A stretch of 4,386 nucleotides of DNA from a virus (IMGVR_UViG_2534681998_000004); one strand, 5' to 3'; counted from the stretch's first letter, positions 3,039 to 4,386 are shown. Notes: a model not told the origin generated them from the sequence alone. Translations and numbers: made by a program.

Positions 3039-3596
3039 ATGACCACTATTACCAAAGATCGACTGCTGACAATCCAGCATTGGCGCGAAACATACGGACC
3101 GGGTAGCAACGTTGTGCTTCCAGCAGAAGAAGCGGAAGAGCTGGCACGGATTGCGCTGGCATCACTGGCAGCAGTATCGGATGAACGAGCAGCCTATGAA
3201 TTATTTATGGAGAAGCGTTTCGGAGAATCTGTAGATCGCCGCAGAGCAAAAAATGGCGATAGAGAATACATGGCATGGGATATGGCGCTTGGCTGGATTA
3301 TCTGGTGTCACCGCGCCGCCATGCTTCAGGCTGGAAACTTTCGGGAAAATAAGGGTTCGTCAACCAATAATTTTCGGATAATCTCGGAAACGTCAACCAA
3401 CTCTCCGGCAATCCCTGATGAGGTGTTGTCCGCAATCCTGAAGGTCGCCAGGCTTCGTGCAGATTTCGATGCTTCTGAAGTGGACAGGCGAGGTATCGGT
3501 AGTTGTCTGGATGAGGCCGAGCAAGAACTTATCGTTACCATTAACGAATACGCCAGTCAGATCGCAGTAGAAGCGACACAGGGGGAGAACCAATGA
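3039..3596 (+). CDS. Hypothetical prophage protein (185 aa)
   Basis: ATG at 3039 starts 2 nt after the upstream stop, with AAGGTGA at 3025-3031 at 7-nt spacing. Long ORF with balanced composition; stop TGA 3594-3596. Confidence 0.6.
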   Translation: MTTITKDRLLTIQHWRETYGPGSNVVLPAEEAEELARIALASLAAVSDERAAYELFMEKRFGESVDRRRAKNGDREYMAWDMALGWIIWCHRAAMLQAGNFRENKGSSTNNFRIISETSTNSPAIPDEVLSAILKVARLRADFDASEVDRRGIGSCLDEAEQELIVTINEYASQIAVEATQGENQ

Positions 3597-3670: not shown

Positions 3671-3705
3671 AAACGTTCGCCGGGATTCACACCAAGGGAG
3701 GGAAT

Positions 3706-3810
3706 ATGTCGGATGATATTTCACTGGTAATGGAAGGCGCTCTGGCTGTTATTGCTGTTGTGGGTGTTTACTGCCTGGTTGTGTTTTTGATGGAGCGCCT
3801 GGGGAACTGA
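3706..3810 (+). CDS. Candidate 34-aa small membrane peptide (MSDDISLVMEGALAVIAVVGVYCLVVFLMERLGN), not in the ORF track
   Basis: ATG 3706 preceded by a strong purine-rich SD, AAGGGAGGG (3694-3702); stop TGA 3808-3810. One clear hydrophobic helix. Hand-translated. Confidence 0.4.
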   Translation: MSDDISLVMEGALAVIAVVGVYCLVVFLMERLGN

Positions 3811-3820
3811 ATTCATTCCG

Positions 3821-3836
3821 TATGGGAATTCCCATA
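3821..3836. repeat. 16-bp perfect palindrome TATGGGAATTCCCATA (possible operator or RNA stem-loop)
   Basis: Exact reverse-complement symmetry read directly from the sequence; lies between the 34-aa ORF stop and the candidate hok promoter. Confidence 0.5.
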
Positions 3837-3850
3837 TCGGGCAAAACGGT

Positions 3851-3878
3851 TTGCTGTAAAGCGAGAGTTAAGTAGAAT
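3851..3878 (+). promoter_or_regulatory. Candidate sigma70 promoter for the hok-like mRNA (-35 TTGCTG 3851-3856, 16-nt spacer, -10 TAGAAT 3873-3878)
   Basis: The -10 matches TATAAT at 5 of 6 positions, the -35 at 3 of 6. The predicted start near 3885 coincides with the 5' element that is complementary to the mRNA 3' end, giving a transcript of about 420 nt, as expected for hok-family mRNAs. Confidence 0.4.
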
Positions 3879-3881
3879 TGC

Positions 3882-3896
3882 TGCGGGTGCTTGAGG
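3882..3896 (+). promoter_or_regulatory. hok mRNA 5'-end element complementary to the 3' end (fold-back inhibition, 5' partner)
   Basis: TGCGGGTGCTTGAGG (3882-3896) pairs with CCTCAACGCACCCGCA (4259-4274) over 15 bp with one bulged nucleotide; complementarity checked by hand. Confidence 0.5.
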
Positions 3897-3930
3897 CTGT
3901 CTGCCTCGGGCATGCCACCGTAAGGCAGAC

Positions 3931-4005
3931 AGAGAAAAGCCCCAGTTAACATTACGCGTCCTGCAAGACGCTTAACATTAATCTGAGGCCCAATCTATGC
4001 TTCAC
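3931..4005 (-). ncRNA. sok: Candidate Sok-like antisense RNA (antitoxin of a type I TA system); ends approximate
   Basis: Minus-strand candidate promoter: -35 TTGCCT (+4040..4035), 17-nt spacer, -10 TAACCT (+4017..4012), predicting a start near +4004. The transcript would be antisense to the mok start codon (3997-3999) and its SD (3985-3988), as in plasmid R1 hok/sok. No canonical terminator found; a U-rich run (complement of +3931-3939) is a possible 3' end. Confidence 0.3.
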
Positions 4006-4209
4006 AAACGTAGGTTAGCCTCTTACGCGCCGAAAGGCAAGGAGAAGCAGGTTATGAAGCAGCAAAAGGCGATGTTAATCGCCCTGATCGTCATCTGTTT
4101 AACCGTCATAGTGACGGCACTGGTAACGAGGAAAGACCTCTGCGAGGTACGAATCCGAACCGGCCAGACGGAGGTCGCTGTCTTCACAGCTTACGAACCT
4201 GAGGAGTAA
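3997..4209 (+). CDS. mok: Mok-like in-frame upstream reading frame (70 aa) that contains hok; analogous to the MokC arrangement as I recall it
   Basis: ATG 3997 with GAGG at 3985-3988 at 8-nt spacing; same frame as hok and the same stop. Whether it is translated as a separate product is inferred from the hok-family paradigm. Confidence 0.5.
   Translation: MLHKRRLASYAPKGKEKQVMKQQKAMLIALIVICLTVIVTALVTRKDLCEVRIRTGQTEVAVFTAYEPEE
4054..4209 (+). CDS. hok: Hok/Gef-family type I toxin (51 aa, small membrane peptide)
   Basis: ATG 4054 with AAGGAG at 4039-4044 at 9-nt spacing; stop TAA 4207-4209. The product MKQQKAMLIALIVICLTVIVTALVTRKDLCEVRIRTGQTEVAVFTAYEPEE has the Hok signature (TM helix, then TRK-x-LCE-x-R and EVAAF/EVAVF-x-AYE). 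From memory it is very close to E. coli HokD (RelF) and HokC (Gef). Confidence 0.85.
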   Translation: MKQQKAMLIALIVICLTVIVTALVTRKDLCEVRIRTGQTEVAVFTAYEPEE

Positions 4210-4258
4210 GAGACCAGGCGGGGGAGAAATCCCTCGCCACCGCTGATGTGTCAGGCAT

Positions 4259-4274
4259 CCTCAACGCACCCGCA
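4259..4274 (+). promoter_or_regulatory. hok mRNA 3' element complementary to the 5' end (fold-back inhibition, 3' partner)
   Basis: CCTCAACGCACCCGCA is complementary to 3882-3896 and sits immediately upstream of the terminator hairpin, as expected for the 3' partner of hok mRNAs. Confidence 0.5.
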
Positions 4275-4277
4275 CTT

Positions 4278-4304
4278 AACCCGCTTCGGCGGGTTTTGTT
4301 TTTT
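4278..4304 (+). terminator. Rho-independent terminator of the hok-like transcript
   Basis: Stem AACCCGC (4278-4284), loop TTCG, stem GCGGGTT (4289-4295), followed by TTGTTTTTT (4296-4304). Confidence 0.8.
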
Positions 4305-4386
4305 CCTGGCATTCTGGTTTACAATTCGCACGCCAGCCTGAACAACTGGCACCTGCTGCGCCAGCAGAGACAACCGATGGCGCACG

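Follow-up and report, generated by a model that had tools for sequence, protein, structure and literature searches.

The window analyzed here, a 4386-nt stretch of viral DNA (IMGVR_UViG_2534681998_000004), carries a complete hokD-type hok/mok/sok locus: a toxin gene, a longer reading frame (mok) that ends in it, and a predicted antisense RNA gene across the start of mok (Table 1). Systems of the hok/sok family are the paradigm of type I toxin-antitoxin modules. We conclude that the minus strand between 3929 and 4040 is very probably the sok gene of a complete module of this type, residing in a lambdoid prophage. The hok product, a small hydrophobic toxin of the membrane, matches Pfam PF01848 (HOK_GEF, Hok/Gef) with 82.9 bits against a cut-off of 22, forms the last 51 codons of the mok frame, and is 100% identical to the Hok of loci L004-L009 in our homologue collection, including the K-12-type L006. 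The Rfam model RF01794 (‘sok’) aligns over its full length (model positions 1-157) to positions 3885-4059 of the plus strand, with 114.9 bits (gathering score, 59). This model describes the hok mRNA leader, whose conserved sequence and structure are present in the window. Because the match falls on the hok mRNA strand, it certifies the locus and not the antisense transcript itself, and for the same reason the antitoxin gene is easily overlooked in annotation.

Table 1. Features of the hok/mok/sok locus, in positions of the window
Feature	Position	Strand	Basis
Complete hokD-type hok/mok/sok type I toxin-antitoxin locus	3851-4305		
Probable hok mRNA promoter, TTGCTG, 16 nt, TAGAAT	3851..3878	+	Homology
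hok mRNA 5' end GGGUGCUUGAGG, pairs with the 3' fold-back element	3885..3896	+	Complementarity, fold
Predicted Sok antisense RNA, ~71-77 nt, 5' G at 4005, 3' end at ~3929-3935	3929..4005	-	sokC mapping, fold
U-rich tail UUUUCUCU after the Sok hairpin, intrinsic terminator tail	3931..3938	-	Sequence
Sok stem-loop, also the terminator; contains anti-Shine-Dalgarno CCUC (3988-3985), both TTAACATTA copies and GCGTC/GACGC	3939..3989	-	Fold, covariation
Sok 5' recognition tail GUGAAGCAUAGAUUGG, complementary to the mok start codon and target loop	3990..4005	-	Fold, likeness to R1
Sok target stem-loop, stem 3992-3999/4009-4016, loop 4000-4008, mok AUG in 5' arm	3992..4016	+	Fold, Rfam
mok reading frame, 70 codons, in frame with hok; Shine-Dalgarno GAGG at 3985-3988	3997..4209	+	ORF list
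Sok promoter -10 hexamer TAACCT	4012..4017	-	Sequence, conservation, homology, sokW mutation
Small hairpin GCC-GAAA-GGC overlapping the Sok -35 box	4029..4038	+	Compensatory variants
Sok promoter -35 hexamer TTGCCT	4035..4040	-	Sequence, conservation, homology
hok toxin gene, 51 aa, identical to HokD/RelF of K-12-type loci	4054..4209	+	PF01848, RefSeq
Fold-back inhibition (fbi) element CCUCAACGCACCC, near the mRNA 3' end	4259..4271	+	Complementarity, fold
hok mRNA intrinsic terminator, 7-bp stem then TTGTTTTTTC	4278..4305	+	Terminator scan

The elements of the sense transcript are intact in the window, including the Shine-Dalgarno sequence and ATG of mok, the target hairpin, the complementarity between the two mRNA ends and a strong terminator. 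The hok mRNA is probably transcribed from the promoter listed in Table 1 and would start near 3885. This promoter aligns with TATAAT upstream of K-12 hokC and is identical in the prophage locus hokW, and the Rfam model begins at 3885. The predicted mRNA 5' end is complementary to the fbi element, with one bulged base, and the minimum-free-energy fold pairs them; the role of such an element is taken from the model for plasmid R1 (PMC9841398, PMC1635323). Folding the 416-nt mRNA to minimum free energy yields the target stem-loop, which the Rfam consensus structure also contains; the loop is complementary to the first bases of the predicted Sok RNA. The small hairpin downstream of it occurs among homologues in the variant forms GACC-GUAA-GGUC, GACC-UUCG-GGUC and GCGC-UUU-GCGC, which include GNRA and UUCG loops. 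Sub-threshold Rfam hits to isrK (27 bits against 50) and rsmX (21 against 56) at 4213-4299 were dismissed as the hairpin and terminator of the hok 3' UTR.

Loci of this kind are common in Escherichia coli. A Megablast search with the 491-bp locus found a match in 4739 of 5426 complete E. coli genomes, with at least 80% of the locus covered in 3861 of them, and the number of matching places per genome has a median of 2 and a maximum of 11. The best E. coli matches are 99.4% identical and are labeled hokD in RefSeq. At the 99.4%-identical place examined, in the O157:H7 strain Z1723, a lambdoid prophage carries the locus, with replication genes (DnaT-like, P) on one side and DUF968/RusA/Q on the other; RefSeq annotates hokD alone there, with mok and the Sok RNA left unannotated. 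A literature search for ‘sokD’ returned nothing relevant. The finding is correct but ordinary and in substance already known, since the family is thoroughly known and the locus amounts to an allele of a prophage system already studied by experiment.

That system is hokW-sokW of VT2-Sakai (Sakai prophage 5, Sp5, of EHEC O157:H7), also a hok/mok/sok module of a lambdoid prophage, with a 181-nt leader 91% identical to that of the window. Its -35 (TTGCCT) and -10 (TAACCT) hexamers, long Sok hairpin and U-tract are identical to ours, the spacer carries a single difference, and mok is arranged in the same way. The two leaders differ at 6 of 22 bases in 3990-4011 as against 2 of 42 in 4012-4053. The Hok C-terminus reads ...FTAYEPEE in the window and ...VDYESEK in HokW (read from primers YO-369 and YO-560), and the 3' UTRs diverge past ~4275. 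In this system HokW is toxic, and the cell is protected when sokW is transcribed from its own promoter; protection is lost when the region of the sokW -10 is mutated, and sokW in trans restores it partly (Takada et al. 2021, PMC8621323). The same work describes 71 nt of complementarity for sokW, detects the sokW RNA on northern blots, from which it is gone after mitomycin C, and finds that RNase III and Hfq contribute and that the active module roughly doubles the release of Sp5 phage after RecA-dependent prophage induction (PMC8621323). As we deduce from primers YO-421/YO-422, the ‘pro-less’ sokW mutation of that study replaces minus-strand TAACCT by GAGCCG; the hexamer altered is the one proposed as the Sok -10 in an earlier reading of the window made from its sequence only (the sequence-only reading). 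Probes YO-592 and YO-597 of that study match the window sequence except for the allele-specific tail.

More distant relatives show which parts of the design are shared. The hok/sok (parB) locus of plasmid R1 has the gene order, regulatory logic and antisense promoter inside mok that we see in the window. R1 Sok measures 64 nt and consists of 11 single-stranded nucleotides at the 5' end, its tail, and a stable stem-loop (Faridani et al., PMC1635323), and the T7 template primers of that study give its ends as 5'-GACUAGACAUAGGG... and ...GGGGCUAUCUUCUU-3'. Both systems combine a 5' tail, a stem-loop and a U-tail in Sok, carry the anti-Shine-Dalgarno CCUC, show fold-back pairing between the mRNA 5' and 3' ends, and match RF01794. 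They differ in context (a prophage in the window, a plasmid for R1), in the Sok start (mok +9 and mok +10, respectively; PMC1635323), in the Sok hairpin, which is ~18-20 nt longer in the window (giving an RNA of ~71-77 rather than 64 nt), and in the mok frame, which is in frame with hok in the window and out of frame in the R1-type locus L057. R1 Hok is only distantly similar to the window Hok; HokW, close to the latter, shares 44% identity with R1 Hok (PMC8621323).

Two K-12 loci complete the comparison. The chromosomal homologue hokC/mokC/sokC (gef) has an annotated 59-nt Sok RNA (sokC, 16952-17010) opposite mokC (16751-16960), with hokC at 16751-16903. As in the window, mokC is in frame with hokC and shares its stop, and the sokC 5' end lies 9 nt inside mok. 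It differs in its short hairpin, its -10 (CACTCT) and -35 (TTGACC) hexamers and its Hok, a different paralogue, and its leader is 78% identical to that of the window. The second locus, hokD (relF) of the Qin prophage, shares the 51-aa Hok and the 3' UTR with the window and is 98% identical from 4040 on. K-12-lineage genomes match only from query base 201 (window 4040), with relB-relE directly upstream of hokD, and loci L006, L027 and L043 have the same breakpoint. In the K-12 copy relBE stands in place of everything upstream of ~4040, and with that region it has lost mok and the promoter of hok as well as the -10 of Sok and all of the Sok RNA. Judged from these alignments, K-12 hokD is a truncated remnant and the window locus the intact form.

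The truncated copies, in which relBE adjoins hokD, raise the question of whether the window locus might itself be transcribed on both strands and yet be inert, a decaying relic like several K-12 hok loci in which Sok has no present role. Degenerate copies do exist, such as L005 with its damaged -35 and shortened hairpin, and the chromosomal hokA, hokB and hokC are, according to reports cited in a bioRxiv preprint (10.1101/2025.08.07.668861), inactive in post-segregational killing, which is why the role of the window copy stays one assigned by analogy. We nevertheless consider decay unlikely for this copy. All known hok/sok elements are intact in it, it belongs to a lambdoid prophage, where the replication genes and Q flank it, and the 91%-identical paralogue hokW-sokW is active, with its effect of about 2-fold on Sp5 phage release after induction (PMC8621323).

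The sok gene itself was approached from the sequence-only reading, which had proposed an antisense promoter and RNA over the mok translation-initiation region; homology and conservation support that proposal. The -35/-10 pair was confirmed by script on the minus strand, at 4040..4035 and 4017..4012 and separated by a 17-nt spacer (TTCGGCGCGTAAGAGGC, 4034..4018). The -10 is as weak as had been said, agreeing with the consensus at 3 of 6 positions. With 7 of 12 consensus positions in all, and 42 sites as good or better in the 4386-bp window, the pair taken by itself is not above chance. Consensus scans for promoters and terminators missed both the promoter and the terminator of Sok; the -10 has only 3 consensus bases and the stem is bulged. 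The promoter and the repeat features discussed below gain significance only through structure and comparison, that is, through homology, conservation and covariation.

The comparison draws on 53 loci taken from one-genome-per-species contigs and on 80 prophage or viral contigs. With K-12 hokC and an R1-like plasmid they yield 75 leaders of distinct sequence, whose sources are Escherichia, Shigella, Kluyvera, Citrobacter, Pantoea, Photorhabdus, plasmids and prophages. By alignment, the putative antisense promoter sits inside mok at the position of mapped Sok promoters. Its hexamers occupy the same columns as TTGCGC and TATCCT of the R1-like IncFII plasmid locus (L057), which reads TTGCGC, 17 nt, TATCCT, GATGTT, G on the minus strand, and the -35 column holds TTGACC in hokC-type loci. 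The TTG of the -35 is kept in 74-75 of the 75 homologues. Within the -10, A2 is invariant (75/75) and C5 and T6 are each kept in 74 of 75; positions 3-4 vary, giving TAACCT, TAATCT, TATCCT, TAGTCT and CACTCT.

Mapping against sokC defines the predicted Sok RNA. The start had been placed near 4004, and the annotated 5' end of K-12 sokC aligns to 4005, a G that lies 7 nt past the -10, is invariant in all 75 homologues and shares its alignment column with the start G of L057. An RNA starting at ~4004/4005 on the minus strand covers the mok ATG (3997) and its Shine-Dalgarno GAGG, just as had been anticipated. The 3' end, which the sequence-only reading had left undefined, can now be placed at ~3929-3935: the annotated 3' end of sokC (16952-17010) aligns to 3929, and the hairpin with its U-tract ends in the same interval. 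The 77 nt between these limits exceed the 59 nt of sokC because of an 18-nt insertion in the window hairpin. Folded from 4005 to 3929, the minus-strand RNA has a predicted energy of -33.2 kcal/mol (z = -6.0), with a single-stranded 5' tail of ~14 nt, a long stem-loop that includes the anti-Shine-Dalgarno, and a U-rich tail. The 5' tail is free or weakly paired in the predicted folds and corresponds to the 11-nt single-stranded tail with which R1 Sok begins binding (PMC1635323). A fold computed for L057:245-308 takes in six bases ahead of the true R1-type start and carries no weight in these conclusions. The U-rich tail is homologous to the R1 Sok 3' end as given by primer ‘sok F’ (PMC1635323). 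Its segment GGGGCUUU is kept in 73-75 of the 75 homologues, as is GGGGCTTT on the minus strand, and the anti-Shine-Dalgarno CCTC is kept in every one.

The sequence-only reading had also described a 9-bp direct repeat of TTAACATTA (3946-3954 and 3972-3980) flanking an inverted repeat, and had suggested that these could structure both RNAs. Both copies of the repeat are present, and GCGTC (3956-3960) and GACGC (3967-3971) are reverse complements. Direct repeats of 9 nt within 60 nt occur four times in the window, where about one is expected. The idea of a structured RNA holds, most clearly for the antisense strand, on which the isolated hairpin folds with -18.1 kcal/mol compared with -11.9 kcal/mol on the plus strand; the notion of separate repeats does not, and we rejected both a repeat element and a binding site as explanations of the direct repeat. 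The sequence TTAACATTAA is self-complementary except for CA at its center (UG on the minus strand), so the two TTAACATTA copies are the two arms of one hairpin. The central UG forms two G·U pairs there and would leave C·A mismatches on the plus strand. Positions 3973-3981 pair with 3946-3954, one base off the register of the repeat. Base pairing joins GCGUCU to GGACGC at the tip and, at the base, GGCCUCAG to CUGGGGCU, after which UUUUCUCU follows. According to this predicted fold, the direct repeat and the small palindrome are one element, the Sok stem-loop and intrinsic terminator, and this identity fixes the 3' end given above.

Comparative data agree with the fold. In an alignment of 38 distinct Sok sequences, a 21-pair structure is paired in 97.1% of cells, against 37-49% when the partners are slid by 1-3 columns. 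Compensatory changes occur at six pairs (38 cells), and the observed covariation score was reached by none of 500 shuffles. The hairpin keeps four of its positions as U·G or G·U wobbles. Since these would be C·A on the plus strand, and since the minus strand folds better, the structure is tuned on the antisense strand.

This strand asymmetry bears on whether sense-strand constraints alone (hok mRNA folding, mok initiation and the hok Shine-Dalgarno sequence) could conserve the region, the antisense hexamers being a silent by-product without any functional Sok. The weak hexamers, at chance level by themselves, are compatible with such a view, and every part of the Sok promoter overlaps a sense-strand element. 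The -35 overlaps the small sense hairpin and adjoins the hok Shine-Dalgarno sequence, GTAAGAGGC of the spacer is complementary to GCCUC, the box to which the mok Shine-Dalgarno sequence pairs, and the -10 lies within the 3' arm of the Sok target hairpin. Nearly all conserved bases thus have a sense-strand role as well, and conservation alone cannot prove promoter function. However, the minus strand forms much the better hairpin, because its conserved G·U pairs are C·A on the plus strand, and the U-tract follows it on that strand only. The start G and A2 are invariant and T6 nearly so, yet the predicted partners of A2 and T6 in the sense hairpin (3992 and 3996) vary, which points to a constraint beyond the target hairpin. 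Finally, the identical sokW promoter is required for antitoxin activity, and the sokW RNA has been detected (PMC8621323). We therefore judge an explanation by sense-strand constraints alone very improbable. Least credible of all, and rejected as a chance match, is that the plus-strand pair TTAACA-18-TATGCT (3972-4001) is the relevant promoter and yields a short hok transcript without the Sok target: it is the sole site from the consensus scan in 3700-4386 (9 of 12 positions), but 0.4 such sites are expected, which makes one not significant, TTAACA is one arm of the Sok hairpin and is absent from all short-hairpin homologues (hokC-type, Photorhabdus and R1-like), and TATGCT includes the mok ATG and varies in its first base.

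With an antisense Sok gene as the preferred reading, its action can be outlined. Its sequence anatomy, homology, conservation, covariation and strand asymmetry are observations on the window copy itself; for transcription, the pairing pathway, RNase III cleavage and biological role we draw on the experiments with R1 and sokW. By this analogy, a constitutive sigma-70 promoter (TTGCCT, 17 nt, TAACCT) within the first mok codons would start Sok at G4005. The Sok 5' tail would pair with the target-hairpin loop of the 3'-processed, refolded hok mRNA, and the duplex would extend across the mok start codon and Shine-Dalgarno sequence and block mok translation. With hok translation coupled to that of mok, this block would stop toxin synthesis, and RNase III would cleave the duplex. 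When Sok synthesis stops, the unstable Sok would decay and the stable hok mRNA would be translated. Binding of Sok to hok mRNA, the mok block and RNase III cleavage are described for R1 (PMC1635323, PMC9841398), and in the paralogue hokW-sokW toxin is made on prophage induction (PMC8621323).

A separate observation concerns variation among hokD-type copies with the same Hok and with promoters and hairpins that are nearly alike. We computed per-site differences among 47 long-hairpin leaders. Averaged over pairs, the difference per site amounts to 0.34-0.38 for the discriminator and Sok tail (4011-3990), compared with 0.10 for the promoter and 0.07 for the hairpin with its U-tract, so that 3990-4011 is ~4-5 times more variable per site than its flanks. 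Among 24 pairs of paralogues from the same genome, the tail is shared in one pair and the hairpin with the 3' end in 11. Up to 14 Hok genes have been counted in EHEC Sakai (PMC2887945).

As a discovery, the sok gene of the window is of small value: most E. coli genomes contain hokD-type loci, and the 91%-identical paralogue hokW-sokW has been characterized, promoter included. One tentative explanation for the diversity of the tail, which from the alignments we hold somewhat short of an even chance, is that diversifying selection or recombinational shuffling keeps co-resident prophage hok/sok modules mutually orthogonal. If this is true, each prophage would control its own toxin only, and a hypervariable recognition tail on a constant scaffold would be a possible mechanism of orthogonality in EHEC strains with many prophages.

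The mok reading frame of the window locus is in frame with hok, and translation starting at the mok ATG would therefore yield an N-terminally extended Hok of 70 amino acids. This arrangement is similar to that of mokC/hokC in K-12 but different from that of plasmid R1, whose mok lies in another frame than hok and encodes a separate overlapping peptide. Our consensus scan of 3700-4386 returned only one promoter-like site, TTAACA-18-TATGCT (9 of 12 matching positions), which is located inside the hok leader and is built from one hairpin arm plus the mok ATG. The short-hairpin homologues (hokC-type, Photorhabdus and R1-like loci) do not conserve this site, which probably arose by chance.

A small hairpin in the sense RNA overlaps the Sok -35 box, such that the same bases serve both as sense RNA structure and as an element of the antisense promoter. 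Homologues carry compensatory variants of this hairpin with stable tetraloops (GACC-GUAA-GGUC and GACC-UUCG-GGUC), and the counterpart in the R1-like plasmid locus, GCGC-UUU-GCGC, is also a compensatory variant. The K-12-type hokD copies adjacent to relBE (homologous loci L002, L006, L027 and L043) have a common, precise breakpoint corresponding to approximately position 4040 of the window. In these copies, the hok promoter, mok, the Sok -10 element and the entire Sok RNA have been replaced by relB-relE sequence, leaving only the hok Shine-Dalgarno, coding sequence and 3' UTR.

Positions of the sequence features in the window
Feature	Position	Strand	Content or context
Direct repeat (10 bp)	3358-3400	+	copies at 3358 and 3391; in 185-aa ORF 3039-3596
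Second variable patch	3915-3923	+	loop of 5'-proximal hok mRNA hairpin
Promoter-like site	3972-4001	+	hok leader
Variable segment	3990-4011	both	minus: Sok 5' tail and discriminator; plus: mok start and target loop
mok	3997-4209	+	
Small hairpin GCC-GAAA-GGC	4029-4038	+	overlaps Sok -35 box
isrK match	4218-4299	+	hok 3' UTR

At the 3' end of the locus, a match to the Rfam isrK family covers the 3' UTR hairpin GCGGGGGAGAAAUCCCUCGCC and the terminator; at 27.2 bits (E = 0.005) it stays below the family's gathering score of 50. The sRNA IsrK binds Hfq and originates from a Salmonella Gifsy prophage. The match may be a mere hairpin-plus-terminator resemblance; alternatively, isrK may have descended from a hok-type 3' UTR. 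Elsewhere in the window, the direct repeat CGTCAACCAA codes for a repeated 'SSTNNF / TSTNS' motif and has no relation to the Sok finding.

The loop of the 5'-proximal hairpin reads GCCACCGUA in the window and GAACACCAA in the paralogue hokW, with conserved stem arms on both sides. Among hokD-type copies with identical Hok, promoter and hairpin, the segment containing the Sok tail and the mok target loop has 0.34-0.38 differences per site, compared with 0.07-0.10 in its flanks. Just one of 24 paralogue pairs within the same genome has a common tail; the hairpin and 3' end are common to 11 of the 24. This hypervariability, together with the rarely shared tails, suggests that Sok/target pairs would be orthogonal in genomes with many prophages.
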